A stretch of 64,000 nt of DNA from Botryllus schlosseri (taxonomy: Eukaryota), in assembly GCA_051294905.1 (NCBI GenBank), contig CM119371.1:3598001-3662000 (forward strand), given 5' to 3'. Below, in pieces: positions 19,866-51,867 of the stretch (position 1 is its first letter; every line of letters begins with the position of its first letter). The position numbers were made by a program, and so were the translations under genes. The notes under the pieces were generated by a model. The model was not told the DNA's origin, did no database searches, and saw only the letters and a program-made list of their open reading frames with translations.

Positions 19866-20173
19866 ATGTATTCTTTTTTCCAGACACTCCGTAATGATCG
19901 ACAAAAGCTCATCGTTGATGTTGCAGTTGTGCAACTGCAAGCTATTCAGACTTTCACTCCTTGAAGCAAGCGATCCAAAGATATGAGCCTCATCGCGACT
20001 CAATGAGATGCGAGATGCATTGATATCGGAAATTTGTTTCATAAGATCGCCGTCTCCTGATTCGTAGATTGCTGTATACAGTTCCATGCGAACGAGCTTG
20101 TTGTCCACATTCTCCTTGAGATGCGAACGAATCGATCCAGCGAGAAATCGCTTTTTCAGCGGCCGATTTGAGA
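19866..20173 (-). CDS. NLR exon (helical domain 2 and first LRR)
   Basis: Acceptor tgtctaacag| in phase 1 matches the NACHT-exon donor; donor CAT|GTGAG. Contains ELYTAIYESGD (NLR HD2-like) and the LRR-like LNSLQLHNCNINDELLSII. Confidence 0.75.
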
Positions 20174-23680: not shown

Positions 23681-24421
23681 CTGAAAGATAACAATATTTT
23701 TTGTTCAATATTTTTTATGTATAGAAATGATCGGACAAAAGCTATTATCTCCATTTGGTAATATATAACCTAGAACCCAGGTTTTCAAGAAAGATATGGA
23801 GATTTATATTGTGAATATTGCAGAATCCAGTTCGGTAAGCCCGGTACCCCAAACTACCAAGATATCAATTCATTATGGTCGAGTACAACATCGTAAAAGC
23901 CGATAATGCAAGTCTATTCGTTTGTACGAGCTTACGTGAAAGCTCCTCTCTCGCACCCACTCTAGGTAATGTCCTTTCTCGGTAATGGTTTTCTCGGTAT
24001 TTGTATAGGACCCCGTGGCCCTGGTCTGCCGAGATTCCCCACTGCTTGCTTACTACGTCAAATTTTAGTGACTGTTTGTTATTATCTGAGTGTGCGCAGC
24101 GAGCTTGCGCGTAAGTAGAAGCGAGAAAAATTGCATTACCGGCATTTACGGTTCTATACTATTATCGAGAACGTTCAATGCCAGGAATCTAGCTTACTGA
24201 GAGGACGTTGTCGAGAAATTTATTTCTGAGAATCGATACCAAATGTGGCAAAGCCGCCATGCACATGTACATTCACACGACCTGTATATTAGGATCTTCA
24301 AAGATGACTTTTTTTTCTTAAATCGTACTGTTAGGTTACCTCCCGTAATTTTCCATGTATAATGCGCAAAATTTTACCGATTTTCTGCCCTAAAATAGGG
24401 GGTGCGTATTATACATGGGTA

Positions 24422-26478
24422 CACTGTAAAAAATCTGGTAGATTTACTGGGAAATCTCTGTAAATTTTACCACGAATTACCGGTCGCAGCCAATTACTGC
24501 GCGTAGCTTGTCATTTTACATTTTGATATGTAATATTACCTTATTATAGCTGTAAAGTAAGTTACCAGAATTTCTTCGCAAAATTACGGACAGTTACTCG
24601 TTACTGCAGTTTACCGGGCTATTGGCAAAATTGATTAGCATCAAAATCGCTGCAGCCTGTGTATACGTAGAACTGAATGTTACTGATATATCATTCTAGA
24701 GGTGATTTGACCTGATTGAACCTCGTTTGCGAGACTGGGGTCTGTCACACCGAAATTGTTGGCCCTAGTATCAATTTAAGCTTAGTAGGGTACAAGAAAT
24801 AACTGACAATCGTAGCTAATGTGGTATACCGTAGCCATATTATATTATAAGGCAATGGCTGTACGGCCACTACGGCCAGTCTCGCTGGTTACATTCGTTG
24901 TCACGGATAAGGCTGATAAGTTAGAAAATTAGTTCAGGATGTATAATATTGCTCGGGGAAACTAGAAATATCAGCACCGCATCCTCAGCTGACTAATGGC
25001 GGACAAGGCGACCTGTAATAGGTTACATTAGGTGACTGCTTTTTCTGAGATTCGTAGTAAACAACCAACGCACAACTGTGACATCACAAGCAGCGTCTGG
25101 TTAGGTAAGTACAGTAAGTAGTGAACAACACATAGAATATATATCAATTTATACGAAATTAGATGAAAAAAGGGACTATGTGCAATGCTAAATGTTTCTG
25201 TATGGAAAAAACGACCCAGATCAAACATTATAACGTGGCCAGTAAATATTATTGGTGTCATGTGTCAGCGGATGAATACCATTTATTTCGAAATCGTTCG
25301 AGTGTCGTCTGGCCAGTGGCCAGTGGCCATTAGTGAGATTTGAGCACAGGGTGGAGCGAAGCTTGTTGTGCTTGAAGAAAGTGGACGCGATCGTTGAAGA
25401 TTCCTAGGAATGCTGAATGGAATACGCATCTTAAAAGGTAATACAGTACTACATAGTATTTGTTACCGTGAATATCTGACTCTGCACACCAGCCCTCGAT
25501 GACTTAGATTTCATGATTGATATATTTCATTCGCCGCATTCTCTGTTCTATTTTGGGATATTTGTCGACTTATATAGTGACCACATACTCCGCTGCGGAG
25601 GAGTTGAAACTGTTGGCTTGGTAATGTCATTTTCGGGCCATAGCATAGATATGTTTTCATCCACTGCTGGATATGTTTGCCACACAAGCCACCTTAAATT
25701 AGGAACCTTTTGCTTCAATACAGAGATAAAGTCATGAATCTCTGCTATGTCATGTAAAAGGAGGAGCCGTCATCACACAATGTGCCAGTACCGGTACTTC
25801 AAAACATGTTATATTTTTGTTAGCCCATTTGTCTTAGTCTTTATAATGTCATGTCCACTGTCCAGGTTAGGAACTTTGCTTTACATAGCGACTTACGCAT
25901 GAATTCTTTTTAGTGGAACTGCAAGATACTACTTACACAGAAGGAATGAGAACGAGAAAAGGAAACAATTGGAAGTTTGGCCGGTGGTGGAATTAATTCA
26001 CGTTTTCTTGAGACCACTCGTGTTACTGCATGTCTTCTAAAGAAGAATTAGACCTCCAGCAGCAATATTTTTCCGTCGATAACCACTTCATCGTGATATC
26101 ATGAATGAATATACAGTTTGTTCCAATGTCGTTTTGGGGATGTGAAGAAAATGTCGCGATATTTGCATCGGGTTGCTTTGCGATAGGTATGGATGTATGT
26201 GAATTTACAAGCTGGTATGTAATCCTGATTTACAGGGACAGCATGTAGGTAGGTAGGCGGTAAAATGACAGTCTCGATCGCAAATGTACAGGAGAACATG
26301 TAGATTAGATATACCGGAGGTGACTGTAACATTACAGTCTGGCGTGTAAAGTGAGATTACCGGACGAGTGTAAGTTAAATTTACATTGACTAACGGTAAT
26401 GTTAGATTACCTCGAAATGTCTGGCTACCGTGCTTCCAAACATTTCGCGGTAAATCGAGGTTTTTATTTTTTACAGTG
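24422..26478. mobile_element. Non-autonomous CACTG-ended DNA transposon, copy 2
   Basis: Same TIRs and TA TSD as 2792-4916. It is inserted inside a Tc2-like repeat: the flanks ...CATGGGTA|CAGCAAGCCTTG match the reverse complement of the uninterrupted sequence near 28810-28830. Confidence 0.8.
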
Positions 26479-27521
26479 TACAGCAAGCCTTGAAAAAGAT
26501 CTCAAAATCGTTTTCCAATACTGTCTTTGATGAAGAGGAGAAAAGTTTGTTAGCACAGTATGTCAATTTCATATAAGTATTATGGTTTGTCACTCCCACT
26601 TGAATAAGAGATAGAGCTGTGACATTTGGATGTGATGGGGTAGTTGAGGCAAACAAAGAATGACTTGATAGTATACATATTTTTAGTTATCTTGTTTTGC
26701 TATGCGTTATGACTTACGATCAATACGGGAATTGAAATAAATGAATTGTCCACTTCCAGCCCAGCTTTATATTAGTATATACAAACTGTTGGTAACTGTG
26801 AAAAGAGTTGAGGTTTGCAGGAGATGAATGGCATTTATTGATTCAATACAGACAGCGACCCATACCTCATAAAATAGGCTATTTTTTATTTACGAAAATG
26901 ATGTATTGTTACAAAATTTGATGTCACTTCCAAATACGTGGTTATTTCAGCTTAATTTTACCAGTAAGAGTTAGCCATATAACAGCTTCTTTGAGGTACA
27001 GAACTTCAATATACAAATGAATAGTATATTCATATTGAAATGAACCCGAATATTTTCGCCTGACACTTGCCAGGGGTAATCGTCAGCAACTAGTACAGAA
27101 TTCGAAAGAACAGCGTATATCAACAATCGTAACACAAAATATAACTAACCATATACCTAATGATCGTCTATACATAAATTTAGGAATATTAGACCAAGTT
27201 TGGCCAAGTTATAGCTTTGCAAGATTTGGTGGCTCATACCTCCCACTCTCCCCTACTCACTTACTGTGCATGTCAGCACAAAAATGGAAATCAACTCTAA
27301 AATTAATCACAACAAATGTATACAGCTCTGCCAACTCAAATGCGCTATCGAAAACGACATTTCATCTTGACGTTTTTATATTGGATATTTATACATGAAT
27401 ATTTTGGAGTTTCTGCATTGTTCAGCTAGCAAAGTCTTGTTAAAAACCACTTGGTTGTGATTGTTGGCTTTTTTTTCAAAAGATATGCGATTTTGCTACA
27501 TGCTACTGCTACATACTATAG

Positions 27522-29807
27522 CAGTGTTTCTTAACTTTGCCTTCAGCGCACCCAAGGGGCGTTTTGGATTTTGAAGTGAGCGGAGCGGGGAGGGGGCACT
27601 GGGCTTAGAGGGGCAGGATGACGGCGCTAATGAAAAAATTTATCGCTGTAGAGAGTGCGGTATGGACATAGTAGAACAACTTGTCCTTGTTCATATATCT
27701 CCGAGCTCTTATTGCAAATTACCATATGACAAAATTTGTCATATCTTAAAAATTTTTCCGGCCTTGTTTGCAACATGTTTCCACGTATGCAGTGACTTAT
27801 AATAATTCATGTTGAAATACAACGATCACGCTACTCGTGGTTTATTTCAACAAAGTGTTTCGAGCTAGGTATTTTATCCCGCCGCGAATAGCGTGTTGAA
27901 ATCAAAGAAAGAGGCACTGTACCACTTTTAAAAGTGAGAGTGAAAGCCAGAGCCATTTGCGTATCAAAGATGATTAAATGATTTAATAAATATATTTTTA
28001 TTTGATAGCTAAAAATTAAATCTTCAGAATATTTCTCCATCATATATACCGTAATTTTCCGAATACCGTGCGCACCCATATATAGTGCGCCCCACCCCAT
28101 GTATAATACGCACCCTTAAAATGAAGTGTATATTCTAGGAAAAAGCCTGTACCCATGTATAGTACGCACCATGCATTCGCAGTACATGAATAGTTGCGGT
28201 TTAGTATTCCATGTTGTTCTGTTTTGCGATGTCACTGTCGAACAATCATGACGTAATCATCGCTAATCATTAAACAATTAACGGCATTGTCTCTAAACGA
28301 GAGTAGATAGTAGCCAAAGCCTGTGAGGTCAGCAACGCGATAGCTCAGGCTAGCGACACACGACATCTTGCGCACGAGGCCTATTACAATTACAATTGCT
28401 CAGGCCAACAGTTATTTGGGGCACACCAGTCCTGTTGGAGAAGCGACTGATTAGTGATTACGCAAGAGATTGTATCTCGCGCACATGGCCTCTTGTGTAT
28501 GCGATTGTCAAGGCTTGTCGTTGACGCGACGAATCAACAAGGATTGCCACGCGCGCTTGTAGCAATCAGCGACCTGATTTAGCTTGCGTCTGAATGGCAT
28601 ACTAACTCAGCAAGAGATCGCATGCTTTGCAGACCACTCTCGTTAATTAGAAACACGCTTTTTGTTAATTGGCATCACACTTCTCTATTTGGCAGAGCCT
28701 TACACTCTATAATACGAATTAAGGGGCCCAATGGCAAGAGGTGATGCACAATTTGAACAAACATGAAGAAAGGTGTGATTTCAAGTTTTTGATCTAGGGA
28801 TTTTATTTTCAAGGATTGCTGAACCCATGTATAATAGGCACCCCTCTATTTTAGGGCAAAAAATCGGTAAAATTGTGCTCATTATACATGGAAAATTACG
28901 ATAATCAAGGATGGTACTGTTTAGTGTTGTGACCTGCAACCTTGGATGAAGTTTTCATAATATAGGTAGCTTTGATTAGCATACGTTTATGTTGAAGTTA
29001 ATGGACCGGATAGTATGAGCATAGTGTCCTATATGGTGTGGACACAGCCGAAGTAAACCTGATTGATTTTGGTTGACAAAAGGAACCTTTGCGGCCATTT
29101 TTTACCGGGTTGACGTGCGCCAAATTCTATAAAACGGGGATCAATGGAAAGCTATTGCGATACTGATTACGAAAATATAAGTATGATTCTGTTCATGGTC
29201 CAAGAACCCCCATAATTAGTCTAGAAATTGGCATTGTTCTCGAGTTTTGTCATTGTGTCGCAACAAAACTGTCTGTCTCTTTCTTCTCAGCTTTACTCTC
29301 GTTTTGCCAGACAGGATTGTTGCTTCACAATGAAAAAACTTGATCACAATGCGAAAACTCGATCACAATGCAAATTACTAGCCTGATTTTGCGGGGTTCC
29401 AGAACCATGAGCAGAATAAAATTTATATTTTTCGCAATCAATACAGCAGTAGTTTTTTATTGATGTCCGATTTAACGAATTATGCGCGCGGCCAGCCGGT
29501 TCAAAATGGTCGTAAAGTTGCCTTTGGTCAAATACAAAGTATGACGTAACCCAAATGCAGTGCAGCAGACAACCTAGATTCGATCTCGAATATAGCACAT
29601 ACAATTGTCAGAGCGTTAATTAGTCAAGTGGTCTTCGGGCACGATTCAAACTATTTCCAATAGTGAAGTTGCATAACAAAAAAATACCAACCATCCTTCG
29701 AACTCTTACCACTTGTTTTTACTACTGCCAAAAAAATATGGGGGTAACAGACCCAGGCAATTTTCGAAAGGGGGCGTTGCGTGGGAAAAAAAGGTTAGGA
29801 ACAACTG
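27522..29807. mobile_element. hAT (Charlie-like) non-autonomous element
   Basis: CAGTGTTTCTTAAC...GTTAGGAACAACTG with 8-bp TSD TACTATAG/TATTATAG (one mismatch). Confidence 0.65.
28049..28901. mobile_element. Tc1/mariner (Tc2-like, CCGTA-ended) MITE nested in the hAT element
   Basis: TA-CCGTAATTTTCC...GGAAAATTACGA-TA with repeated subterminal CCCATGTATAATACGCACC. Related ends occur near 24342 and 30165-30214. Confidence 0.65.
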
Positions 29808-32493
29808 TATTATAGCCTGTACCATACTACCATGTGTCACTTTTGTTTAAAAGTATATGTACCATTCACATAAAATCTGTCTAAAACGAGTTGCGGGCTA
29901 CTTATGAATCGCCTCATAGAACACTTGAACGAACACCTGATAAAGACAACAAATTTGCTATCACAACCAGGTGCAAAAATACGTCCTAATCCCTGAACTA
30001 TTTTCATCTTCAAATTAGGATAGATAATTTTAATACATTTGGTGGACCGGCACTGGTCGGCGGTTGAGAACCACTGCTGTATGGTACATGTACAGTACAT
30101 CGGGCAGGTTGCGTGCTGTGCATGGGTACTGGATTTTTCTCAGTAACTACATGCCATTTTCAGGGTACGTATTATACATGGGGGCGTAATATAGCCTACA
30201 TAGAAAATTACAGTACTGTAAACTGAGGTTACTTACGACTTCAGGGTAACTTTGGACACCAAGCAGTAAAAGATTTAATTAGCAATTAATGGGTTGCCGC
30301 TGAATGTCCAATTCTTTTTCATGAGGCAACAGTACCAAAAGTAGTCTCAATAAAAGGTGGATTCATTTCACTACAAGATAAACTTGACCCAACATTGATA
30401 AATTATTGGCGGGTGTCAATTTCATCAAAATTGATGGCCATCAAACTTCTCACCAAAAAACATTAATAGCATGTGATTGATAGACACAAAACTTGGCAGC
30501 AGATACCTCTAAGTAGTCCTAATCCACGGCAAAAATCTCAGTGGGCTCACCCTTAGATCAATACAAGAAAATGTGATGTCCAAAGTTACCCAGTCAAATT
30601 TCATCAGAATGGGGTATCTTTGGACAGTGGAAAATGTGATATTTAGAGCTCTGGAAAGTGGATGATTCATCTGTGTCAAAGTGTATCGTCAACTATATTC
30701 CTTATGACCGGCCTGATGGCTTTATAAAATGGAATGAGAAGGTTAATAAATTAGGAGTTTGCCAAAATATGAAAAAATGGGTAGGCAATGAGCTGAGATA
30801 GTGAGATATTGTAATCGGGTGTAAGCTACTTGAAAAACATATCACATTTGGTACTCCTAAATATGCGCATGCAGAGTAAGGGATATCATAAATTACGACA
30901 AATATATACATCAGAGGACATAGGAAAGGGAAAGTGTATCTTTTAGAGAACATTAATATATTTGAAATCGGCAATAAATCACGGTAAAATGCATAATGTA
31001 TGCTGTCGATTGATGACACTGCCAGTGGGATACCCCTTATCCCCATACGTCATTTATAAATCCTAATTGGTAAAGGCATGAGGGAAAAAATGAGATAATG
31101 GATGAATAAGGGGGTATTAGCCTGGTAATTAGCCTGGTAGCCTGGCCTATGCAATATTTTGTTTCAGTTTTAGTCACTGCTCTTATCAACTCTTACCAAA
31201 TAAACCACATTTACGAGGTTTCATAAACAGTAGAGTGTAAAGGCATACTAAAGGCATACATTTTTCACAGTTACCCCACATGCATGGGGTAACTTTGGAC
31301 ACGGATAATTTACAAAAATGAAGTACTTATTTATAACAATGAAGATTTTGGATTAGGTCATTCTAATCTTTGTTCCATGACCCCCGAAAAACACAAAACT
31401 TGCATCCCCTTCACCCTAGCATTTCCAAGATACAAAGCGGAATTGTTGAAAATTGTCCAAAGTTACCCCGGTCTATGGTGCCACCCAATAACCTATTACA
31501 TTTTATAAACGGAATAAAACTTAGAACAGTGTTTAAAATTAGGATATTTTGAGGGACGTGCAAAACCAAAGAAAAACCAGTACATGTGCACGTACTTGTA
31601 CATGTACACGGATACCATCTTCGTGAATATCACTGAAAAGTAGAGGCATAACGTTACTGATTACCTCTGGTCTAGTCTTTAAAAGAGCCGATAAAGATAT
31701 TTTTACCTTTTTAATAGAGAGTTGAATCGGAAAAGTTTGGGAAACACTGACACTAATTTTATATTGAATCCTTGCAATGGTGCCAGTCAGTCATAAAACA
31801 TATTTGCCAGATCACCTTGTCTAAACATAGTATAGAAGAATCTCTTGAACATAGCAATGAAATGAGCTCAGGAGTCGAACCTGCTTAGAACACAACAAGC
31901 CTCAAAACAAGTCAACGATATAAAAATGAAATATTTTTAGTGTAATTCTGTCTACACAAATTGCAAACGCTAGTTTCAAGAGGAAAAAATCGCCTACATC
32001 TGACTGCGATACACATTACTGTGACAACTTCAAAAGTAGGCCTAATTTATATTAACATCTCATTTGCTTAACATTCAGCGTTACAATATATATAGCTTTC
32101 ATATGGCAAAAATGAAAGGGATACTCCCGTGATTTCAATGAGCAATGACCTCAAACTTGAGTTGAGCTGGTTCCGTTCACAAATAACACAAATAACTTGA
32201 AAGATATGGCCATGATAATATTTGTTGATTCACTGGCCTCAATTGAGTTCCGCCACTCAATTGGGCAATTGTGGGTTTAAGATGCGGCAGTTACGTATTG
32301 TGTTCCACTACTAGAAGTGCTATATAGTGTCGCGAGCTTTTTTCTCTCTCCTGAGAGAGAGTGCCGCAAGGTCCAAAGGTTGAGAACTACTGATATAAAA
32401 GTCCCGTTGTTAAAATATTCGAACCGGTCATGTCCCTCTCCTAAATTAGGCTACTAGTCAGTAAATTCTTAGAAATTGCTGCTATTACTATAT

Positions 32494-33012
32494 TAGGCTT
32501 ACCATATTTCGGAAATGAAAAAAGAGGACACTTTTTCAGAAATTTCAGACATGCAAAACTGGAGATGAATTCTCAAAAACTGGTAAATTTTACCCGCTGC
32601 ATGATCGGTTGACTAAAAAAAAAAAAGGTCTTCACTTCCGCTCAGATCTCAAAATAACGTTTTTTACTCTACATTGCCAGTTGGATGACTAAAAAAAAAT
32701 AAAAAAAAAGGTCATCACTTCCGCTCAGAGCTCAAAAACACGTTTTTCACTCCACATTGCTAGGTGGATGACTAAAAAAAAAAGGTCTTCATTTCGCTCA
32801 GAGCTGAAATCACCGCTTTTTCCTCCGAAATACCCGCCGGAGCTTCACTTCTGCGCCAATTTGCGGCATATCACTCGCAATTTCCTCTATATCTGACCTA
32901 AATTTTCAAAAAAGAGGACAAAATCTCAAAAAAGAGGACAAAAGGGCGTCCTCCGAGGACACTTTCAAAAAAGAGGACAAATCCTCTTAAAAGAGGACGT
33001 ATGGTAAGCCTA
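32494..33012. mobile_element. hAT (Tip100-like) MITE
   Basis: TIR TAGGCTTACCATA...TATGGTAAGCCTA with perfect TSD TACTATAT. Internal AAAAGAGGAC and GACTAAAAAAAAAGGTC repeats. Confidence 0.85.
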
Positions 33013-33927
33013 TACTATATTCTCGATTTAAGGCAGGGGCACCAAACTCAAACTCGGCCACATTGGTATGACGAGCCAGATATCGGCCTCACTCAATGCG
33101 ATATTCTCTCCCAGTTCCCAATCTAATCTATCCCAATCCAAATCTACGCGTCTAAACTTTGTTAGACATATTTCTCTATCGCCCTCATCGGACTCATATC
33201 ACTATTCCGCTCAAACTTTTGTTATATTCTGGCTGTTACTGAAAGGCAGTGGCTACTCGTCCGGACCCGGACGAATAATTTTCTCAGGCTATTCGTCCGG
33301 CACCGTGTGACGTAGGCCCGTTACTATGGAGACTGTATGCGTTTTTGAGAGGCTTCGGTTTTGTACATTATTTATTCGCCCTTCTGGTTACTGATTTCAA
33401 TGGTTACTGTTACTGATTTGTATGCTCATAATTATAGCTCCGAGGGAAAGTTTACGCCATACTAATAATTGCAAATAGCTGTGGTGAAAGTACCAGAACT
33501 TGACGCCCACCTTTACCTTTACAAGAGATGTTTACCTACGCTTAATGTAGTAAGAACAAGTAGGATAGTGATTTGTAAGCTCATAATTGGAGCTCCGAGG
33601 GAATGTTTGCGCCATACGAAGAGCTCCAAAGTGCTATCGTTAAATAACCGGATGCAGTCAGAACACGAACGATTCGCTGAAATTCTTGCTGTCTCCACCT
33701 ATTTCTGAACTCATGCAAGCGCCATTGACCTAACCAATTGTACGTGAACTTGCACAGCTAAGACGGAATTGTCACCTCTGCTGTACTACGAGTACTCATA
33801 CTTGATGTTGCTGCGCAGTAATGATTGGAATACCAACTGAGAGAGACTGTGCGTCTTTATTTTCATACAACAGAAATACAGAACAAATGGACAGCAGCAA
33901 TGATCATACAGAAAACATGTGCATGCA

Positions 33928-34352
33928 CAGTATTTGATGTCGGATAGAAGAGATCGATACAGCCATGGAAGTCAAGTGGTCTGATAAAACCCGCATGAAA
34001 CAAGTATGCCTACATTGTCTCTGCATCATCTGACTGTAACAAATCGTAGTTGAAAAGATGAAGAAAAATTAAATGATAGCAAATGAATGAATGAAGCTAT
34101 GTCTGGGCGAAGTAGGGCAATAGTGTTAATAGGAGAAAAATACCAGTATTTGGTGTCGGATAGGAGAGATCGATACAGCCTTGGAAGTCAAGTGGTCTGA
34201 TAAAAACCCCATGAAACGAGTATATGCCTACATTGTCTCTGCATCATCCGTCTGTAACGAATTGTAGCTGAAAAGATGAAGAAAAATTAAATGATAGCAA
34301 ATGAATGAATGAATGAAGCAATGTCTGGGCAAAGTAGGGCAACAGTGTTAAT
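33928..34352. repeat. ~216-bp direct tandem duplication inside the MULE
   Basis: CAGTATTTG(A/G)TGTCGGATAG(A/G)AGAGATCGATACAGCC at 33928 and 34144, collinear thereafter. Confidence 0.85.
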
Positions 34353-34898
34353 ACGACTATCAGAGGTAATCAGGTAGGTCAAGAGTGTTAATAGGACTAT
34401 CAGAGGTAATTAGGTATGGCAAGAGTGTTATTACGGTGACAAGAGGTAATGAGGTAATTTTTTTTATAATCTGCCATACAGCAGTTCACAGATGGTAATC
34501 CATTCAAAATGATCGGTCAGTCGATAGATCTCTTGGTTAGGTAACTATTAAATGGGCCCAAGTAGATATTTCCCTTCGATGAGGGTCCTGTATTAAGGGA
34601 GTGAACAACTTAAGCAGGTATGAAAAAGTCATCGAACACATACGACAAACTGTTCGAAAAATATTTGTGTACAACTTCAATGTTTATATGATCATTGGGT
34701 GTTAATCTGGTATGCATGCTGGCATTTCCGCACATTCCTTATTGCAGGTGACAGTAAATGCTGTGCATACAATTTGCTGCTTTCAAGATATTCAAGCATT
34801 GATAGCGTGTTTTCACTGGGAACATCAATCATGAAAACTAAGTAGCCTACTTTCAATGTCAAAGTTGCCGCTACATATTTTTCTAACAGAGGCATCTG

Positions 34899-35470
34899 TT
34901 ATTTTTTGCAGCGGCCACAGAACCATTTGTTTTGTTTAGGGTAAGTGTTTAGTCCAGCACATAGAAGATGATCCCGGTTGAGACAGGAGTCGCAACGAAT
35001 TGAATTGCTCTTTGTAAGTTGAAGGTCGCATACTCCACAGTACCAGTCTTTCTGACTATATTTACTTTGGAATGCCTTCATCACAGCAGCCCATCCATCA
35101 TATGCGAAGTAATTCTTGATGTGGAGTATATTCACAGTCTCATCAAGGCAGCTGTTGGGGATGAGACGAGTGTCAGACGTGACAGACTTACTGCCCAATT
35201 TCTTTCCATACACTGCTTCATTAGTGTCAGATGGTGATACAAACCATGACAGCATCACTGTGAATAAGGCAGAAGTGAAATTTGCTGAAGTTCTGCATGA
35301 AATAAACTTACATCGGTCTCTGTCTTTAGGATGTATTTTTTTAAATGGAACTGGAGTGTCACATTTCTTCTTCTTCGGAAGGCCAACCACAGTTTGTTCC
35401 AAGCCTTTTGGGCGTCCTCTTTTTTCAGTTTTGATGGCAGATGAATGTTGGAAAGATCTGAAACAGCAAG
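34899..35470 (-). pseudogene. 3' remnant of MULE-associated protein with C-terminal PHD finger
   Basis: KRGRPKG basic motif followed by WYCGVC...IRCDSC...HLLCAGL...WFCGRC (C4HC3 PHD pattern). Confidence 0.75.
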
Positions 35471-35837
35471 ATCAGTTTTACTATAGTGTAGCAAGATAAA
35501 GTTTGGATTTATTTGACACCAACCCGTGAACTTGTCTGGTGTCATGGTGATTTTGCTACAGTCTAAGGACACTGCTGGGGTGCTATTTTCTGCATCACAG
35601 ACTTCGGACACTGCTATAGCGCAATCTGAAGGTAAACAAACATGCAAACATCATGAAATTGCAACATACATCTAAATCCAGTGAGTATAGTGACCTGGTC
35701 TGTGATTTAAGATAATTTCGAGCTAAAAAGGGGGCACTTCTTCGTTATTCTCCACACATCAGGAAGTGGTCTCCATGAAACCAATGCTTCCTATGAACAT
35801 GTGAGAATTTATAAACGTTAAAATAAATTGATTTTCG

Positions 35838-37315
35838 CGTTGGGGTGGGGGATATTAGGGTCGGGTGGGTTAGGATTGGGGTGGCGGGATTGTGGTTGCA
35901 TGTGTGGGGTTAGGATTGGGGTGTCGGGGTTGCATGTGTGGGGTTAGGATTGGGGTGTCGGCACGCGTGGGGTTAGGGGTGTCGTAAGATGAAGTGGTGG
36001 GGTTGCAGTTGCATGTGTCGGGTTGCGTATGCGTAAGATGAGGTGGTGGGGTTGCAGTTGCATGTGTCGGGTTGCGTATGCGTAAGATGAGGTAGTGGGG
36101 TTGCAGTTGCATGTGTCGGGTTGCGTATGCGTAAGATGAGGTGGTAGGGTTTCAGTTGCATGTGTGGGGTTAGGATTGGGGGGTCAGCACGCGTGGGTTA
36201 GGATTAGGGTGTCGTAAGATGAGGTTGCATGTGTGGGGTTGCGTATGCGTAAATGGGGTTACAGTTGCATGTGTGGGGGTTGCGTATGCGGGGTTAGGAT
36301 AGGGGTGGCTGGGTTGCGGTTGCATGTGTGGGGTTAGAAGGGTGTCGTAAGATGAGGTTGCATGTGTGGGGTTGCGTATGCGTAAAATGGGGTTACAGTT
36401 GCATGTGTGGGGGTTGCGTATGCGGGGTTAGGATAGGGGTGGCAGGGTTGCGCGTGTGGGGTTGCGTATGCGTAAAATGAGGTGGTGGGGTTACAGTTGC
36501 ATGTGTGGGGTTTGCATGTGTTGGGTTGCGTATGCGGGGTTAGGATAGGGGTGGCAGGGTTGCGGTTGCATGTGTGGGGTTAGAAGGGTGTCGTAAGATG
36601 AGGTTGCATGTGTGGGGTTAGGATTAGGGTGTCGTAAGATGAGGTGGTGGGGTTGCAGTTGCATGTGTGGGGTGAGGTGGTGGGGGTGTGGTTGCAGTTG
36701 CGTGTGCGGGGTTGCGTATGCGTAAAATGAGGTGGTGGGGTTACAGTTGCATGTGTGGGGTTTGCATGTGTTGGGTTGCGTATGCGGGGTTAGGATAGGG
36801 GTGGCAGGGTTGCGGTTGCATGTGTGGGGTTAGAAGGGTGTCGTAGATGGGGTTAGGATTAGGGTGGGGGCGTGGTTGCAGTTGCGTGTGCGGGGTTAGG
36901 ATAGGGGTTGCGGTTGCATGTGTGGGGTTAGGGATTGGGGTGTCAGCACGTGTGGGTTAGGATTAGGGTGTCGTAAGATGAGGTGGTGGGGTGTGCGGGG
37001 TTGCGTATGCGTAAAATGAGGTGGTGGGGTTACAGTTGCATGTGTGGGGTTTGCATGTGTTGGGTTGCGTATGCGGGGTTAGGATAGGGGTGGCAGGGTT
37101 GCGGTTGCATGTGTGGGGTTAGAAGGGTGTCGTAAGATGAGGTTGCATGTGTGGGGTTAGGATTAGGGTGGGGGTGTGGTTGCAGTTGCGTGGTTAGGAT
37201 AGGGGTTGCGGTTGCATGTGTGGGGTTAGGGATTGGGGTGTCAGCACGTGTGGGTTAGGATTAGGGTGTCGTAAGATGAGGTGGTGGGGTGTCATAGGAA
37301 TGGGTTGGGGTTTAG
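35838..37315. repeat. GT-rich modular minisatellite with telomere-like GGGTTAGG units
   Basis: Shuffled modules GGGGTTGCAGTTGCATGTGT, GGGTTGCGTATGCGTAAGATGAGGTGGT and GGGTTAGGATTAGGGTGTC. Confidence 0.95.
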
Positions 37316-37444
37316 GCTGAGGCTAATTTAACCCTAATTTCACGATACCAAGACTACAAAATGCTCATGGGGAACATTGCTTCTTCATGTTCATGTGGTT
37401 GTGGACCCGGTGGAAATTCCGTATCATACGTAACGCTTACTTAC

Positions 37445-37725
37445 CGTTGGTTAGGTCGTAGACCCTTAGATAAGCTCTGAAATCTGCGGCCGCCGTGGAT
37501 GCAGTGAAAAGATATCTGGCCATACTTGAGCGCATCATTGAAATTTCGCCGAGTGGTTCGCTTTCTTACTGCATCGAGCGTACGTGAATTTCTCTTGTAG
37601 AGCTGGACGTAATTTTCTTTCTGGTATTTCTCCAAAGCACTTTTTAAGTCTTCATAAGAGGCGAACCTACTCTCGGAATCCATGCCGCAGTTACGGCCCA
37701 CAGTTCCGGAAATCCCGGCACCCAT
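37445..37725 (-). pseudogene. 5' exon of MULE-type transposase (ZSWIM3/FAR1-like N-terminal DNA-binding region)
   Basis: FASYEDLKSALEKYQKENYVQLYKRNSRTL...LKYGQISFHCIHGGR..GLRPNQ, ending at donor CG|GTAAGT just inside the TIR. Confidence 0.75.
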
Positions 37726-38652
37726 TCTGCAGTTGCGGCATGCTTACGCCGGACGAATAGCCTGAGGAACTTTATTCGTCCGGGTCCGGACGAGTAGACA
37801 CTTCCTTACTGAAAAGGCTTCTGACCCCAGCGGCAGTTCAATCTCCTACACTGCAAAACCATTACGTCTGTATATTTTTCGAAGGAAAATGCTGTACCCA
37901 GGTTGTTGCTGCCGGTACGGTACTCTCTTGTTATTGCATTATGACGTTTCTCACTTAACAGAAGGTTTAACCTTAGGTCACGGGAAAGTGACACGGCCAC
38001 CGTTCATCGCGTATGAATCATAAGCTGTATTAGTTTGTAATTTGAGCGGACATGAATTTCTATGTCCTAATTCAATCCAAATCCGACAAAATTTCACAAA
38101 TCCTGTTTTTTCAAATCCTAATCCTAAGCCATGCTCCTGGCGTCCTTCTGGCGTTCCTTCTTCGCCAACGCCTCTACACCCTTGGAATATTTCAATAATG
38201 TTGTGTGCTGTTTTCTAGGTTATTTATAACCGAATATGTGCTCGTTAACGTTTGTTTTGTATCGTTACTACCGTATCTTGCCTGTCTACTAGTTGTTTTG
38301 TATGTTATTATTACGTCATAGACACAAAATAGTTATTACATTTCGAATCTGATCCACCCTATCACTGACGTTCGCTACTGAGGGTCAGTCGAAAAGCTTT
38401 TAGCGAATAAATTACCAATATGATGGTATTGTTTCGCGAATGCGTAATTTAATGCGGCTACTCGTCACATACATCGGATACGACTGCCAATTAAACCACG
38501 TAATAGTTCGTCTGTCATAGATCAGAAAAGAATAAAATAAAGTGAAATTGATCGTCTTTGGGCGATTGAGCATCCGAGACTGTAAAAACCTTTTCAGCGT
38601 GCAAATAAGCAGGCTATGCGATGCCTGCCATGTTATCTCATTGTGTTTTCGG

Positions 38653-38917
38653 CAGAGGTTGTCAGTAACGAAGTACTTCTACTATTTGAAGTACTTGAAG
38701 TAGATTCTGCCTACTCACACTACTTTTTAAGTAGTTATGATTTTAGACTACTTCTACTTCTACTTGACAGTTTTCAGTTTTGTTTGCAAAAATATGCGTG
38801 GAATACCTATTTACTACTTACTTGTGAACCACCAATCCTACTTCTACTTGACTAGAAATGCCGGCGTTACTTCTAATTCTACTTGCGTAGCGACGGTGAC
38901 TACTTTCACCAACTCTG
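38653..38917. mobile_element. hAT-type MITE with CTACTT repeats (dispersed family)
   Basis: CAGAGGTTGTCA...CACCAACTCTG with TSD GTTTTCGG/GTTTTCTG. Related ends occur near 711, 2607-5292, 10075-10318 and 31650. Confidence 0.7.
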
Positions 38918-39331
38918 GTTTTCTGCTGAGTGAAGCATTAAACGAAAATCGTTCGGGATACGCGTGTCATCAGTTGAGCTCATTTTTTGATAAAATGCAT
39001 TAGTTAAAAGGTTGATTGAATACTAAGGTGTGGAGGTTTTGTAAGAGAAGGCATATGTAAAATCCATATGCTTCGCATAAAAACCCAATGATCATTGTGA
39101 ATTTGAAATTGTACTTTGTAATGATGCGGAAAGTGCCACCAGATAAAGATTGAAGGTTGTAACTAAGTCGCATGGTTTCGAGTCACAAGTCAACCTCTTT
39201 CTTATAGTTTTGCCTCGAGTCGAGTCGTCATTTTCAATTCACCACCAAGTCAAGTCCGAGTCCAAGTCATTGTGTTGGCTTCTAATTTTCTACTGAAAGA
39301 CTAGTTGCACCCACTTTTTATAACTCTGGTG

Positions 39332-41087
39332 CAGATATGCGGTAATCGTGATTAGTAATCGTAATCGATTACGACGATTACAGCATTTGAAAATAATCGT
39401 AATCGCAATCGATTACATTCGAAAAAAATCCGAAGTAATTGTAATCGACTACTTCACATATCTAATCGATCTCTTTGTGAAAGAACGATTACTTTTCATT
39501 TGTTCAATGCCCATGACATAAACTGAACATTCGTGAACATTGAAGAGTGCGATTTGAAACAGGTTTTGGATAGCAGAATGTCGGAGGGTCAAACGCCCCT
39601 GCTCATTATTGCGTTACTAGTATTGGCTCTTCATTGCGTAACGAATTATCCGCACATATTCGTTATACATGTGATTGTAAGAAAACCCGTTATGATTATG
39701 TCAGATTATCACTACGCTGCAGACGCCACTACCTTGCAGCAGGATAATAATCACCACTCTGCCTAGTTTCGAATAGTAACGTATGTAGGCCCACTAAGTA
39801 TTGATGTTTTGTTATACTTAGGTGAGCGCAGTTTAACAGTTGATTGGCTAGCGGTAGGCCTATCTACGTTGACACCGGGTAAAGATTTGATATTTTTTAC
39901 TCGTCAAATCGTCATGACAATTTCTACATCGAAGCATTAAAAACCAACGGCTGCTGATAAAAAATCATAACTGAGCCGTTATTATCCATTACTCGTATAC
40001 CGACAGCTCGGAATATCTGTATTAAGTGGATTGTAGGCAGAAATCTATGTTTACCTCATCATATTCTTATCCAGCCCTTGAAATGGGCAACAATTTCTAT
40101 TTCGCAATTTTATACTCAACATCTGGATCTGCTACTGTAGCCACCCGCTTATAAGCGGTTATAAGCGGTACGAATTCTTGCTGCAATCCACGCTTAGCCT
40201 ACACGCCATGTAGGCTAAGCGTGGATTGCAGCAAGAATTCGTACCGAAACAGCATTTCGCCACCCCCTATTCAAAAATGGTGATCTTTGGCCCCCATATA
40301 GGGCGATCAGTAAAACTTCTGGCGGGCGAAGTTCCCCAGACCCTCATTTAACTGCCGGGCTTTTTTCACAAGAACTGGAAAACACGATTTGATGCGATAT
40401 GGATTCGCTGTGTATTTGCTCTCAAGTCGCGCCAATACGAATATTCAGGCACGTAATTTAAAACCATAACCACGTTGTATGTTTTTGATTCATGATATTC
40501 TTTTTGCCATGTAGTAAAAAGATATTGGAGTTGCCTTAACGTAGCAGACGATAAAAAACCTAAACGAAAAACTTTCGTGAGTCGCACCCAGAAATTGTCA
40601 TTTCTACACGGGGTTCATCATTTTCCTCAGTGGGTACCTCGGGTGGCATTTCTATTGTGGTGCTGAGATTGAAAAGACTATTCGTCACGACCATCAAGCG
40701 CGGCTTTGGGCAATGGAAAAATACAAAATGTTTCGGCCAAGGTAGCATGTCTTGTTGAGTCGCGGCGCGGTATTGGACGCCACCGAAATGCCTATTTCTG
40801 TAAATCATGCAATGGTATGTCATATACAGTAAATGACACTATGACATCTTATTTAAAAAGAAAGACCTTCTCTCATGAGCCCTTTTCATCGCATTGTTGT
40901 CTTCCAAAGATAACTTCTAAGAAGCAAAATAAATGTAATCGCGAGTAATCGTGATAACTTTTCCATAGTAATCGTGATCGTAATCGACTACTTGCGGGTT
41001 TTGCTGTAATCGTAATCGTAATTGCATGATATGAAAGTAATCGTAATCGCAATCGATTACATTCATGAAGTAATCACCCCATGTCTG
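39332..41087. mobile_element. hAT-type element with (GTAATC)n subterminal repeats (element B)
   Basis: CAGATATG...CATGTCTG with perfect TSD CTCTGGTG (39324-39331 and 41088-41095). Confidence 0.8.
40166..40246. repeat. Perfect hairpin, 38-bp arms and 5-nt loop
   Basis: CGGTACGAATTCTTGCTGCAATCCACGCTTAGCCTACA-cgcca-TGTAGGCTAAGCGTGGATTGCAGCAAGAATTCGTACCG. Confidence 0.95.
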
Positions 41088-42027
41088 CTCTGGTGATATC
41101 GAATGGTTTTCAGTTATCATATATACTAATTTTCCTCACTTTTAGCAGTTTTTGGCAGACATGTACATTGTACAAACTGAATATTGAGTTAGTTGATGGT
41201 AATTTAACCAACGTTTTTAGAGTAGTTGTAGTTCTGAAGTAGCTGATTTCGTAAATTGAGTAGTAGGATAGTAGTTCTGGTTGCGGATTTTAAAAATTGC
41301 TCTAGCTCTAGTTCGAGTTGCAGATTTCGAATTCTAGTTTCAGACAAACACGTGCGGTCGTTTTAGGTGAATTACGTTGTCGGTGTTATGTTGGATGATG
41401 TTTCTGCACTCTGCAGTGTGCAGCCATTGCTTGCTCAGAGCCATCACTGCTAACAGTTGCGTAGCCAGCGATTGGCTTTTTTGGTGTCGGAATCACTCCC
41501 GTTTCAAACTCGAAACACCGTTATTTTGAAATGTCCATGAAATGTTTGGTATTCCCAATAAAATAACAGTTGATGTGAATATCAGGAGAATTAAATCAAG
41601 ATCTGTACGGTTCTTAACCTTTGAAGACTTGAGAGCCCTACGTCACAGATAGGCAACTATTTTTCTGTGTATGACATGCAGGAAATACGTTGACGAGCTA
41701 AGACAAAAGATTGCACTACATTCTGCGTGCATTAATCTCTAATAATTACCTGGAAAGAGCTCGAATGTGAATCCAGATTATTTCGTAAATCAACATGAAG
41801 TAGGGTGTTTGGGACACATTTTATTTTTCTTCAAAGTTTTCCCTACAATTCCCGCGTATATAGTCCATCTTTGACCCGCGAAACGTAAAACGCCCAGGTC
41901 CGCGCAATGCTTATCGACAGGCGTTCAGGGGACCCTTAATTTTCAGTGAGTTACAAAACAAAACTCTACCACATGTGTCCGTACCATACGTGTGGGAATC
42001 TGTAGGACTACCAGTAAAGATAGTTAG

Positions 42028-45018
42028 TAGGGATGGTGTGAACCTCTGAAAGGTTCAGGTTCGCGTGAACGTGAACCTTTTTGAAAGGTTCTGTGTGAAC
42101 GCGAACGTGAACCTCATGACGTCACGTGACGTCATATTGCTAATTCCGACCCTACATTTCAGTGAAGTGAGCCTATATTAATGTACATTGTACACTATAT
42201 ACCTATAGCGACGACTCGGGCCACATAATGCCACAATGCTAAAGTATATATTGACGTTTTAAACGTCACCGGTTTTATCAACTGGGGCAATCAATTGATA
42301 TAATCACCCCAGAAAGTCAATATCTTCCATCGCTTTGCCAACAATTTCGACAAGAACTTGCAAGGTAATAGATGCTTATATACGCCTTAACGGTCAAGGC
42401 CAGGCAGGAAAATGTATTCGTCGTCCGAGTATTGCTACGTTGATATTGAGCAGAGGTTAACAAGTTATACAGCAGTAGCCAACATCCCAATCGCACGGAT
42501 TTGGCTTTTATGATACAATAAGCATATGAAATTAAGATTGACCCCGTACGCCAGCTACATTTTTTACCTCAGACAACGACATCAATTTCGTTAATTGGTT
42601 GAATAAGCATCATTCGCTGACTATCTACATGTAGTGTAATTCGCTTTTGATATTGTGAGCAGGGCATGGTATGGTATGGAATGGAATGAGAATCTTCCAT
42701 ACTCCATACCCGCCCAATCGTTCCATACCATACTTGACAATTTTCCATACCATAGCAACATTCTTCCATACCATATTTGATACTTTTTCCATACTTTCGC
42801 AACTTGGCCAACCTCTCAAGGGATATTCTATTTTTGACGTGTGGAAATGTTCCAGTGTATTATATTCTAATTATTTTGGATGAGATTATCCATTTATACA
42901 GCCCCGATGCTCCAATGATATCCCCAGTTTCTTTATAGCATATGTCGACAACGCTGTAAAAATGTATATAGGCCTATACACACGGGATTATTTGGAAATC
43001 ACAACAGAGTCTCATGACATGTAAATCTAGTGTGGTAACGTGCTAGCAGTAACCTCATCTACAGAATTGCATAACACAAAGGTATTGTCAAATTATAAGA
43101 TAGGTTCCCAACCTTTATACACTTTAGAATTGAATTTATTTTGTAAAGACTTGCTATTGGCGAAAGTTCAGACCCCCAAAATGGAACAGCACGCAATGAA
43201 ATTAATGAGCAGTGAACTGGTAACCGTACACGCAATGTTGCGCCTCCGTAAAATGGATATGTGAGGTAAGCTGACAGAAAAATAGGAAGGGTTTGAATTT
43301 TTTTCAAATGTGCCAAGGTAGCATCACTTTACATATGTAAATGCCGAATATATTGCATGGGTCTGTTAACTTCTTGGTGTTGACGAACTTTTATGCGTAT
43401 GGTAGATATAAGCCACCATAACCTACACTGTCGCACGCTACTATTACTCGAGTAGTAAGAAATATGTCATTTCCTCAGTAACGAGTCCGGCTATGCTATC
43501 AATTAGCGATTCCACGATCTCCATACACGATCTCTACATATAAACTTTTATTTTAACGAATCAGGTGATTTCAATCACACCATTTCGTATACGAATGAAT
43601 AACAAACTATATGAGGGAGATCGCGTGCCGCTGTCCACTCGATTCTCGCTCATTGGAGGCAGTGATAATACGAATTGCTGAATTGCAAATGAGCGAAGAA
43701 TTATTATAGATATATACGATCGGCATTTCATACAAACGTTTAATAAACGAAGTTAATAATGTAAACTGTAAAGAATATGTTTTCCAAAGTGAGTCTTTTC
43801 CCAACCAGAGGGCCTTAAATTCCCCACAATTGGGGTATATTCTCCACCGGTTGGAGAATATTTCTTTAAATATAATTTTTCATCACTACAATCATTATGC
43901 GACAGCTAATTAAATGTATATTTTCTCCGCCAATCTGTGGGTCGATCACACTCGTTAGCTTTATTAGCCATATCAAGGTGTCCTCTGACCATTATATCAG
44001 AAATAACCAGATTTCATGAAGTTACAATGCGTGTTGTAGGCCGGCATATGGTAACGTCGCTCCAAGACGAGCTACATATTTTTGAATCACAATGATGGTT
44101 ATGTCAAATAGATATTGCGTGATGATCATCCGCGCCAAGCGCAGAAAATTATTTCCAAGTTCAACAAATTGATGAAAATATTCATGTAACTTCTACATTC
44201 TCAGAGTCTACGATTTTAAAACTATACATTGGTCATTTACGTAGTGGGAGTTACGATAAGTGAAATGCACTTGTAACGTGCTCGCCGTCGAATATCATTC
44301 ATTTTTATGATATTTAAATCGGAATAATTATCATTAATATTATTTTCATTCATATGTGCATCGCGAAACTTAGCTGTCTTCAAATAAATGTCGACCGGGA
44401 AGGGTGAGTCGTGAATCACAATTTGAGATATGAACAATGAACATAGACAATGAGCGATTTTCTGCGGTATGCAATCAATTTGACAAATCGAAAGTAGGAT
44501 TATTGTCATGGTACTGGCAAAAATGTAAAAGTATGGAAAAAGTATGGAAGTATGGAAAACACCTTCCATACCATACTTGAGAAATCTCCATACCATACCA
44601 TACTTGCACTCTTCCATATTCCATACCAAAATTTCGTTCCATTCCATACCCTACTTCCATACCATACCATACCATACCATGCCCTGATTGTGAGATTGCG
44701 GGTCAAGCTCACAGCAGAGAGTCACTAAATATTCACAAACGAAAAGCTGGATATTTCGAGCAAACGTTTGTAACAAACCAAGTAAAATTTTTGAGATGGT
44801 CAAGGTGCATGCCATTTTAGTGTTGATTTTTATGCTGCCAACGCCATGTATTGGATGGCCCGTAGTTGAAATACAATAAATTTCAACCAAAGATGATGTG
44901 ATATGAAAAAGGTTCACAGTGCAGAACCTACCGAGGTTCGTTTGTGAACGTGAACCTCTAAATATCAGAGGTTCACACACAGAACGCGAACGTGAACCTC
45001 ACGTTCACACCATCCCTA
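42028..45018. mobile_element. hAT-type element with GTGAAC repeats (element D)
   Basis: TIR TAGGGATGGTGTGAAC...GTTCACACCATCCCTA with perfect TSD ATAGTTAG. Confidence 0.88.
42660..44686. mobile_element. hAT-type element with (TATGG)n repeats, copy 2 (element E)
   Basis: TIR CAGGGCATGGTATGG...CCATACCATGCCCTG with perfect TSD ATTGTGAG. Opposite orientation to 13660-15460. Confidence 0.88.
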
Positions 45019-45648
45019 ATAGTTAGGCTCACTTGTACGAACTACCCATTTATTTAGTTGATAGTCAACTAACTAATAGTTTTTTTAGTAGTTTTAGTTC
45101 TAGTTGACGATTTTAAAAGTTGAGTAGTTTTAGTTCTCGTTGTAGCTGCGGATTGTAAAAACTGACTAGTTGCAGTTCTAGTTGTTTTGGTAAATCTAGT
45201 TATTTTCACATCGTTGCGAGTTTTAAAAAATGAGTAGTTCTATTTCTAGTTGGGCTTTTTTACAACCCAAGAGTTCGTGCAAGTTTGGTTTCTGGTTGCA
45301 TTTTCAAGTACCAGTACCAATAGACGAAATTACAATGGAATGTCGGTCTTGGTCGTCTGAGTCTCGACTCATATGACTTGGTTCTAGTCATGCGCAATAA
45401 CTCGAGTCCAAGTCGACTCAGTACACAGATTGACTCGAGTGTAGTCGAGTCATTTCCATATTTTAGGAAAATGAATCGGGTCAGGTCTAGTCATCAGAAA
45501 TTCGTGACTCGAGTCATTATAACATTGCCCCACATATACACGACCTATGTCAACGATGTGGTGCAGCTGCATCATGGGACATTTGGCGACAATGACCATT
45601 GATTTTATGAAACAGGATGTACTACATAGTACCGGATAAAACACTTAC

Positions 45649-45798
45649 GTTGGTCTTGTGGAATAGCGTCAATTCCTGAATTTATAATGTAGTTGATGGT
45701 GGTCTTGTTTCCGTGAATTTGATCTCCTGCCACAACGTTGACCGAGCTGTTTATGATCCGTTGATTGATGTTTTCGCCTTCTGCCAAACTTGCAGATC
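45649..45798 (-). CDS. Putative NLR exon 2 encoding a RHIM/amyloid-like motif
   Basis: Acceptor gtgtctcag|, donor C|GTAAGT, 150 nt, phase 1-1, compatible with both exon 1 and the NACHT exon. Translation SASLAEGENINQRIINSSVNVVAGDQIHGNKTTINYIINSGIDAIPQDQ. Confidence 0.65.
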
Positions 45799-47053: not shown

Positions 47054-47126
47054 TGCTTCCTTCAGGTAATAATGGTGGAGTCACATCATCGACACCAGAA
47101 ATTCGCTCTTCTCCCCCTTCCGCCAT
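47054..47126 (-). CDS. Putative NLR first coding exon
   Basis: Kozak-like ATC ATG G, then MAEGGEERISGVDDVTPPLLPEGS and donor A|GTAAGT (phase 1). Lies directly downstream of a motif-rich promoter. Confidence 0.6.
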
Positions 47127-47226
47127 GATCACGATCACGTAATGATAAATAAATGCTATAACACACAATACTAAGAATGCAAAGACAGGGAATATCAGTA
47201 GTGAGGGTATCTGGGATATAGACCCG

Positions 47227-51240: not shown

Positions 51241-51297
51241 ATGGAGTTAACACCGGTATTACCTTCGCTCACTGATGAAAAAGATGAAAGTTGTTAA
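51241..51297 (+). pseudogene. Truncated 5' fragment of a Bcl-2-family paralog (mirror copy at 57110-57166, minus)
   Basis: MELTPVLPSLTDEKDE then stop, versus MELSRVSAPSITEEKDE of the intact gene. The upstream AGCTCTGA(G/C)TCGCT is also shared. Confidence 0.7.
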
Positions 51298-51867
51298 AGA
51301 AAGCAGATTAGTATGAAAACTCGTTAAATAGAAGTAAAAGTAGCCTAGAAACATAACTACTTACTGAAAAATCGTTACGTAGAAATGGGGTTAGTCTACG
51401 AACATAACCACTTACTTACTTTGAAATCTCAACTTGTACTTGTAGTCGTACTTTACCTTTACACGACGTTTTTGTATAATGGATACTAATTTTATTAAAA
51501 ATAAACAAAAAGCGCGAGAAATTACATTTTATCCCGGAACGCATCAAGAAAAATCATATAAATTTTGTAAAGTAGATAGAAAACTACACTATTCCGATGC
51601 CCGGAAGACTCTTACACTCTGGATTTTGTGCAGTATATACTAATTTTACATTGCGGAGTATTCCATTAACGTTAATCCAGTGATCCTCCATCTATTTTCA
51701 ATCACGATCCTCTTATTTGTCTAGGCTTCGAACCCCACATCCAGTACGTTTTCTGGGGATTAATATTTTCAGAGTCAAGTATAGCGTATCGAGACTTCAT
51801 GAAACTTACTTGGAAATAGTTACTTCTACCCTAATTTAAAAGGTTTCTCAGATATCGTTACAATGGA

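Follow-up and report, generated by a model that had tools for sequence, protein, structure and literature searches.

A short Asn/Val/Ile-rich motif exon in the N-terminal slot of an expanded NACHT/NLR family of Botryllus schlosseri, present also upstream of a subset of IRE1-like kinase exons

The gene considered here is a predicted NACHT-type NLR on the minus strand of the window, by which we mean the whole 64,000-nt stretch of DNA that was analyzed. Its N-terminal slot appears, as read from the sequence, to be filled by a short N/I/V/G/Q-rich motif exon with no detectable death fold. The exon is real and lineage-specific, not a product of chance. It forms a genuine N-terminal module in a tunicate NACHT/NLR family that has expanded greatly and, judging from exon order and phase in the genome, it is shared with a subset of IRE1-like kinases, an association that is new here. 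These observations suggested to us, tentatively, that activated NLR oligomers are linked with kinases through a homotypic β-motif, which would act by induced proximity. The way in which invertebrate NLRs without CARD or PYD relay their signal is largely obscure, and the motif offers a concrete candidate: a 26-residue segment named by no library, found at 57 or more NLR loci and at a defined set of motif-kinase genes, which together make up a predicted receptor-effector pair.

The coordinates, phases, and peptide originally given for the 150-nt exon all proved correct when the sequence was read (Table 1). The exon is preceded by gtgtctcag and followed, after position 45649, by gtaagt, and its in-frame translation (45650-45796, minus strand) is the 49-aa peptide SASLAEGENINQRIINSSVNVVAGDQIHGNKTTINYIINSGIDAIPQDQ. 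Both exon joints fall in phase 1 and create the codons AGA (R) and CAA (Q), so that the frame is open through into the NACHT ORF. None of the three exons of the window copy is disrupted, their phases agree, and the NACHT ORF of 502 aa (22206-23714) is open; it matches Pfam NACHT (PF05729, 4.3e-14, 53.1 bits with the cut-off at 26.7) and gives weaker NOD2_WH and NLRC4_HD2 signals. The original prediction had the motif exon spliced in frame between a 24-aa first exon and the NACHT exon. The frame and the phases agree with this arrangement, whereas RNA-seq joints do not back it, with none in four runs, so the splice model for this copy comes from the sequence and the architecture of its paralogs only. 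With that splicing, and with the linkage in 57 of 93 loci described below, the protein would carry its ∼26-aa core at about residues 29-52 and its P-loop ∼170 residues in. No Pfam LRR match was obtained among ORFs of the window that are 75 aa or longer; the Styela clava homologue P0004 has PF13516 LRRs. Within the motif exon, the tail shows a weak repeat of the core in the window's own subfamily (INQRIINSSVNVVAGDQ against INY-IINSGIDAIPQDQ; self-alignment against shuffles, P ∼0.001-0.006, uncorrected, L001-L004), and the same procedure finds no such signal in distant paralogs.

Table 1. Features of the predicted NLR gene in the window (^ marks an exon border)
Feature	Position	Strand	Description	Basis
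Exon 1, coding part	47054..47126	-	MAEGGEERISGVDDVTPPLLPEGS + 1 nt; ATG at 47126, 24 codons + 1 nt to 47054, then donor gtaagt	read from sequence
Motif exon (exon 2)	45649..45798	-	150 nt, phase 1-1, ag^GA...C^gtaagt	
Conserved core LAEGENINQRIINSSVNVVAGDQI	45716..45787	-	24 residues; family consensus LAEGENVNQxFxNSxVNVVAGDQI	alignments A1, A2
Variable tail of motif exon HGNKTTINYIINSGIDAIPQDQ	45650..45715	-	weak repeat of core in the window's subfamily	
Inferred intron	23681..45648	-	21,968 nt; another gene, expressed from the same strand, lies within it	
NACHT exon	22209..23680	-	acceptor tatctttcag, phase 1, P-loop GSGKTT; 3' border provisional	
Candidate next coding exon, same gene	19878..20180	-	E 4e-7 to 3e-5	tblastn, Styela clava homologues P0004-P0007

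Two neighboring features of the window deserve description in their own right. The gene nested in the NLR intron (33000-37800, minus strand) encodes a ZSWIM3_N domain (37444-37743, 4e-11) and a PHD finger (34902-35471). It is expressed, as seen from RNA-seq GT..AG joints at 34267>35066, 35257>35312, and 35457>35524, a further RNA-seq joint at 35127>37445, and a read depth of up to ∼60x at 33.2-34.5 kb. Between its exons lie arrays of G-rich minisatellites (35867-37270), whose periods are 15-250 nt and whose units include TTGCATGTGTGGGGT; they give the 36-38 kb bin a GC content of 0.525 and a GC skew of 0.48. The second feature is a near-perfect palindrome (50521-57888) situated 3-10 kb upstream of NLR exon 1. 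Its arms (50952-54167 and 54240-57455) show 100% complementarity about a 72-nt spacer, its outer 431 nt are 99% complementary, and the arms contain identical 183-aa Bcl-2-family ORFs (52375-52926, plus strand, and 55481-56032, minus strand; Pfam Bcl-2 1.7e-21). The palindrome could have arisen very recently by inverted duplication, or it could be an artefact of the assembly.

The N-terminal slot was searched for the domains that usually occupy it. No Pfam match to CARD, Death, DED, PYD, or TIR was found in the 103 ORFs of the window that are 75 aa or longer or in 107 minus-strand intron ORFs of 40-74 aa, and these scans of the window and of the 22-kb intron are in accord with the earlier report that no death-fold exon was found. 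In the paralog L029 (C2:31566524>31567464, 833 bp), the motif exon is separated by ∼0.8 kb from a NACHT ORF that opens with ISALIKSINDNA, like exon 3 of the window gene, which leaves no space for a death-fold exon.

The motif exon belongs to a large family. A six-frame search of the 495-Mb assembly with the 49-aa peptide returned at least 150 matches, none with an internal stop and 68 at E < 1e-3, and a foreign exon ORF used as the query recovered 95 matches in this genome at E ≤ 1e-5. The borders ag^G(A/G) ... ^gt(a/g)agt, phase 1-1, are kept in most of the 30 copies that were fetched. In 15 other loci, blastn detected an exon-1 homologue that precedes the motif exon, by 0.2-1.2 kb where the distance was measured, and some genes have two motif exons in tandem. 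The A1 alignment (29 sequences) yields the consensus SAxLAEGENVNQRIINSSVNVVAGDQIHGNK..., in which L4 is invariant and S1, A5, N9, V19, and D25 are each present at 90% or more. Shorter family members stop soon after VNVVAGDQ, and the conserved unit is thus ∼26 residues. Over the 24-codon core, the pooled pN is 0.152 and the pooled pS is 0.450 (pN/pS 0.34; 406 non-independent pairs). The motif is conserved among its paralogs and is under purifying selection across copies whose synonymous sites have diverged.

When 1.84 billion representative proteins were searched with a profile, 14 matches came back, of which 12 are short ORFs spanning the motif exon together with its intron flanks; the remaining two are repetitive β-rich proteins in which a low-complexity stretch was aligned. 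No full-length annotated protein bearing the motif was found among these representatives, a word-indexed search gave no motif-bearing protein of greater length, and the best ESM Atlas score for the motif peptide (0.83, to clusters without names) was below the useful range. One of the short ORFs, P0059, comes from a 1.2-kb contig, and its identity to any sequence of this genome does not exceed 60%, which indicates that the motif occurs outside this assembly. In our search of the literature, no paper describing the motif was found, and the string NVVAGDQ occurred in 0 papers.

Paralogs of the window NACHT exon number at least 85 at E < 1e-120, and 11 of these 85 have one or two internal stops; because 85 of 209 candidate matches were scored, the counts are lower bounds. 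A same-strand NACHT lies within 60 kb downstream of 57 of the 93 motif matches at E ≤ 0.011, where ∼0.5 would be expected by chance, at a median distance of 10.8 kb (range 469 bp, at C9:4683221>4683797, to 51 kb). Taken from the other side, a motif exon is found upstream of 54 of the 85 NACHT matches. The pairing count was made without four short second pieces of the NACHT table. When 20 apparently unpaired motif loci were inspected, a NACHT ORF was found within 10 kb in four of them, and the NACHT set is therefore itself incomplete.

The window NACHT exon finds its closest relatives in ascidian proteins, with 33-35% identity to those of Styela clava and 26-28% to those of Clavelina lepadiformis. 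Ahead of NACHT, the S. clava protein P0003 has a tandem array of at least 11 near-identical units of 33 aa (ETNITDSHIQEVRAEQIHEVHAEKVVQNVTNI), of which P0007 has degenerate copies, and the Clavelina homologues have a TIR domain (PF13676) instead; the N-terminal modules of ascidian NLRs thus vary by species. The Styela repeats resemble the motif in that they precede the closest NACHT homologues, are N/I/V/Q/E-rich, and have a 'QIH' stretch in common with it. Homology between the two was considered and rejected, as the A1 profile reaches the repeats at E 0.31 or worse and hhalign assigns a probability of 1.4%; we regard the likeness as resemblance only.

The original prediction proposed a search for other proteins sharing the motif, and this search was positive: the exon also heads a subset of kinase genes. 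At locus L047 (C3:20.09 Mb), a 282-aa kinase ORF (Pfam Pkinase, 3e-39) lies 1.6 kb downstream of a motif exon, and its best PDB relatives are IRE1 kinase domains (7.5e-28, with the next family at 6e-20). The genome holds at least 71 paralogs of this IRE1-like kinase at E ≤ 1e-20, and for 6 of the 71 a motif match is located 1.0-5.0 kb upstream on the same strand (∼0.05 expected by chance). Three of these six (L047, L051, and L052) were read in sequence and the other three are known from coordinates alone; the motif status of the other 65 kinases rests on two protein-query scans. The motif peptides at L047, L051, and L052 are ALAVGENVVQRIANSEINVVAGNQI, SLAVGENVSQSYTNSQINVVSGNQN, and STLAEGEQITHRFTNSTVNVVGGDQF, respectively, and the A1 profile scores the kinase-type peptides at 1e-13 to 4e-10. 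In all three loci read, the motif exon has a phase-1 donor and the kinase ORF a phase-1 acceptor, with acceptors that include cacttTAAG^GT CGT and aatttCAG^GT TGG. As the motif exon is found in frame upstream of both NACHT and kinase exons, two signaling families have it in common.

The motif-kinase genes map to C3 at 0.06, 20.09, 20.18, 21.67, and 21.71 Mb and to C5 at 3.18 Mb; predicted motif-to-kinase joints include C3:20090095>20088492 and C5:3175345>3176385. Scored NACHT matches on C3 are at 11.8, 13.1, and 25.6 Mb and are, among the matches listed, not neighbors of the motif-kinase genes. The IRE1-like kinases as a whole are a clustered, single-exon expansion, chiefly at C3:16.1-17.6 and 20.1-21.7 Mb and also at C4:14.6-14.8 and C10:25.0 Mb, and most of the 71 or more were without a motif exon in the scans run. 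KEN (Ribonuc_2-5A) has 20 matches in the genome, several of them within open frames of 590-1200 aa. Downstream of the motif-kinases, KEN was found after one gene only, at a distance of 8-9 kb (C3:46480-47822) and possibly in a separate gene; the 7 kb that follow the L047 kinase gave no match. The Styela kinase homologues have a kinase-coiled coil-DTC arrangement and a different, β-rich N-terminal segment. DTC was rejected as the C-terminus of the motif-kinases, since the five DTC matches in the genome are on C4, C12, and C13, away from these genes.

Other partner domains were sought with Pfam downstream of the unpaired motif exons, with coverage of 64 among 115 ORFs that are 90 aa or longer and of 141 among 205 that are 62 aa or longer, with the small ORFs of L038, L040, L049, and L050 omitted. 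These scans returned only retroelement ORFs, NHL repeats, and a RING finger. The RING ORF (zf-C3HC4_3, 1.6e-10) lies ∼5.5 kb downstream of the motif exon of L043 (C3:16430474-16440473), and the NHL-repeat ORFs lie ∼8 kb downstream of that of L048 (C8:3917428-3927427), past an inserted retroelement; neither locus has a NACHT or kinase within 10 kb. The two may represent further partner classes or merely neighboring genes.

How might such an exon work? The conserved segment of ∼26 residues, LAEGENVNQxFxNSxVNVVAGDQI, is Asn/Val/Ile-rich, seems strand-prone, and is unlikely to fold alone. Given that the same symmetric phase-1 exon also heads the IRE1-like kinase subset, its most likely role is that of a homotypic coupling motif. 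Vertebrate NLRs use CARD or PYD, and RIP kinases use the RHIM, for homotypic coupling. Ligand-driven oligomerization of NACHT would bring the N-terminal motifs into clusters, and the clustered motifs could pair or stack as a β-sheet assembly, possibly cross-β and self-templating. This assembly would then recruit kinases with the same motif, which would be activated by induced proximity. We place this coupling of activated NLR oligomers to kinases first among the readings considered, at somewhat less than even confidence. Several observations count against it: four RNA-seq runs gave no joint at the exon borders of this gene, the protein searches brought up no full-length annotated protein with the motif, only 6 of 71 kinases have the motif, the NLR and kinase genes are, among the matches listed, not neighbors, the motif has no similarity to known amyloid motifs, and its core has the acidic residues and occasional prolines described below.

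The composition of the motif bears on the mode of assembly. The peptide of the window had been described as N/I/V/G/Q-rich with a proline-free core. The composition of 37 cores is N 3.73x, V 2.15x, I 1.78x, Q 1.65x, and G 1.15x, with P 0.13x, L 0.44x, and K 0.69x, relative to assumed background frequencies. The bacterial (BASS) and fungal motifs are characterized, in the available part of Dyrka et al. (10.1101/2020.01.06.895854), as ∼25 aa long, enriched in Q/N/G/V/I, and depleted in K/P/L, a bias that the cores here match. An AF2 monomer model built from 29 sequences has a pLDDT of 61.7 with no secondary structure assigned, from which we conclude that the peptide is not a globular domain. A predicted complex of two NLR-type and two kinase-type motifs, in which the alignments were unused, scored 0.01 against a mark of 0.34 and is not evidence either way. 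The acidic core residues E6, E8, and D25 are conserved and prolines occur occasionally at core positions 18 and 23; neither is typical of a dry steric zipper. An amyloid mechanism is plausible but unproven. In its fullest form, which we consider rather unlikely, a tunicate-evolved amyloid-type motif would template a cross-β assembly on NLR oligomers and so recruit and activate IRE1/RNase-L-like kinases, in a prion-like relay that would be unrelated to the RHIM and amplified to dozens of receptors, a set of features to which we extend the same reserve. If this relay exists, it might serve antiviral defense or allorecognition; some ascidians show allorecognition.

The alternative that survives best is that the peptide is of an ordinary kind, a short linear or regulatory one that is neither homotypic nor amyloid and whose exon reached NLRs and some kinases through exon shuffling. 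Such a peptide could dock a third protein common to both, for example a chaperone, E3 ligase, or adaptor, or it could serve as a localization signal or an autoinhibitory strand. The motif is indeed short, near the N-terminus, and without a confident fold, its symmetric phase 1-1 exon is readily shuffled, its acidic residues are conserved, it resembles no known amyloid motif, and a minority of the kinases carry it. However, an N/V/I/Q-rich and P/L/K-poor segment of ∼26 residues suits β-stacking better than it suits a linear motif of 3-10 residues, the slot that it occupies is that of homotypic domains in other NLRs, and tandem copies occur in some genes. We regard the ordinary-peptide reading as a real possibility, although we lean away from it.

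A further alternative concerns the window copy itself, in which the exon could be non-functional, either because the gene is a silent or decaying paralog or because the exon is a duplication relic unspliced to a NACHT 22 kb away. Four RNA-seq runs labeled as the same species, of each of which 6-13% was read, were aligned to positions 27201-47200. The exon-1 bin has a depth of 0-0.03, with no joint or loose end at 47054, 45798, or 45649 in any of the four, and more than 90% of the aligned reads match these positions only in part, a sign of their origin in repeats. The lack of exon-1 reads and border joints, the unusual length of an intron that houses another expressed gene, the conservation of flanking intron sequence among close paralogs (pointing to recent duplication), and the internal stops in 11 of 85 paralogous NACHT ORFs all favor loss of function. 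Against this stand the intact, in-phase exons and open 502-aa NACHT frame of the window copy, the recurrence of the architecture in 57 or more loci with introns of 0.5 to 51 kb, and the purifying selection on the motif at a pS of 0.45; in addition, NLRs often have low or induced expression, and the fraction of each run that was read is small. On balance, we consider it improbable that the exon is without function in this gene.

The original prediction called the core a variant RHIM-like one, and this part of it found no support. The RHIM family (Pfam PF12721) has no match on the 49-aa peptide at E ≤ 10, and a genome scan with it gave nothing over the 20-bit cut-off and three weak matches, none at motif exons. 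According to the accessible portions of Dyrka et al. (bioRxiv 10.1101/2020.01.06.895854) and of an eLife RIPK3 paper, a G-φ-Q-φ-G signature is common to RHIM, PP, and BASS3. Neither this signature nor (I/V)Q(I/V/L)G occurs in any of 37 family members, the nearest pattern being G-x-Q-φ-x-G in 13 of the 37. Searched against 177,635 PDB sequences at E ≤ 10, the family profile reached no RIPK, ZBP1, or HET-s chain, and its best match was an adhesin β-strand (E 0.44). The available text on amphioxus (Branchiostoma) describes RHIM-NACHT proteins in which the RHIM is where CARD-like domains usually sit (Kajava et al. 2014, PMC4262963), and tunicates are reported, in a source likewise available in part, to be without RHIMs. 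The amphioxus proteins set a precedent for animal NLRs in which an amyloid motif takes the place of a death fold, though the motif here differs. It is most improbable that we are dealing with a true but divergent RHIM that shares its origin with those of RIPK1/RIPK3 and of the amphioxus RHIM-NACHT proteins: the segment I(I/Y)N(S/C)(S/T)x(N/V/I)(V/Q)(V/I)(A/G) of the motif seems, by eye, to line up with the RIPK RHIM flank, its domain slot is that of the Branchiostoma proteins in the text available, and it is found on kinases, but the blank Pfam result, the missing signature, and the PDB search all speak against such homology. As judged by its sequence, the motif is not a RHIM family member, though it would work like a RHIM or amyloid signaling motif.

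The homotypic coupling reading can be set beside three known systems. The death folds of animal NLRs (CARD, PYD, DD, and DED) hold the same architectural position as the motif exon and would do the same presumed job, the homotypic recruitment of an enzyme after NACHT oligomerization; the difference is that the module here comprises ∼26-50 aa without a confident fold, not a six-helix bundle. The RHIM of RIPK1, RIPK3, ZBP1, and TRIF is likewise short, non-globular, and common to sensors and kinases, and tandem copies occur. The RHIM of the RIP kinases lies C-terminal to the kinase domain, whereas the motif here is N-terminal to it, the kinases are IRE1-like and not RIP-like, and there is no sequence relationship.

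The closest parallel is with the fungal (HRAM of HET-s/NWD2, sigma, PP) and bacterial (BASS1-10) amyloid motifs, which likewise consist of ∼25 residues N-terminal of NACHT or NB-ARC, recur on a second, downstream protein, and are N/Q/G/V/I-rich and P/L/K-poor. HET-s has two pseudo-repeats, and the weak tail-core repeat of the window subfamily recalls them. The systems differ in that the partner here is a kinase and not a pore-forming HeLo or Bell domain, that the motif is N-terminal on both proteins whereas fungal effectors carry it C-terminally, and that receptor and partner genes, among the loci listed, do not lie side by side; the host here is an animal, and its system is known from sequence. 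In the portions of the literature available, NLR-associated amyloid motifs outside the RHIM are described only in fungi, bacteria, and archaea. If the proposed mechanism is true, prion-like or β-motif signaling would have arisen repeatedly over the evolution of animal immunity and would not trace back to a single inheritance of the RHIM.
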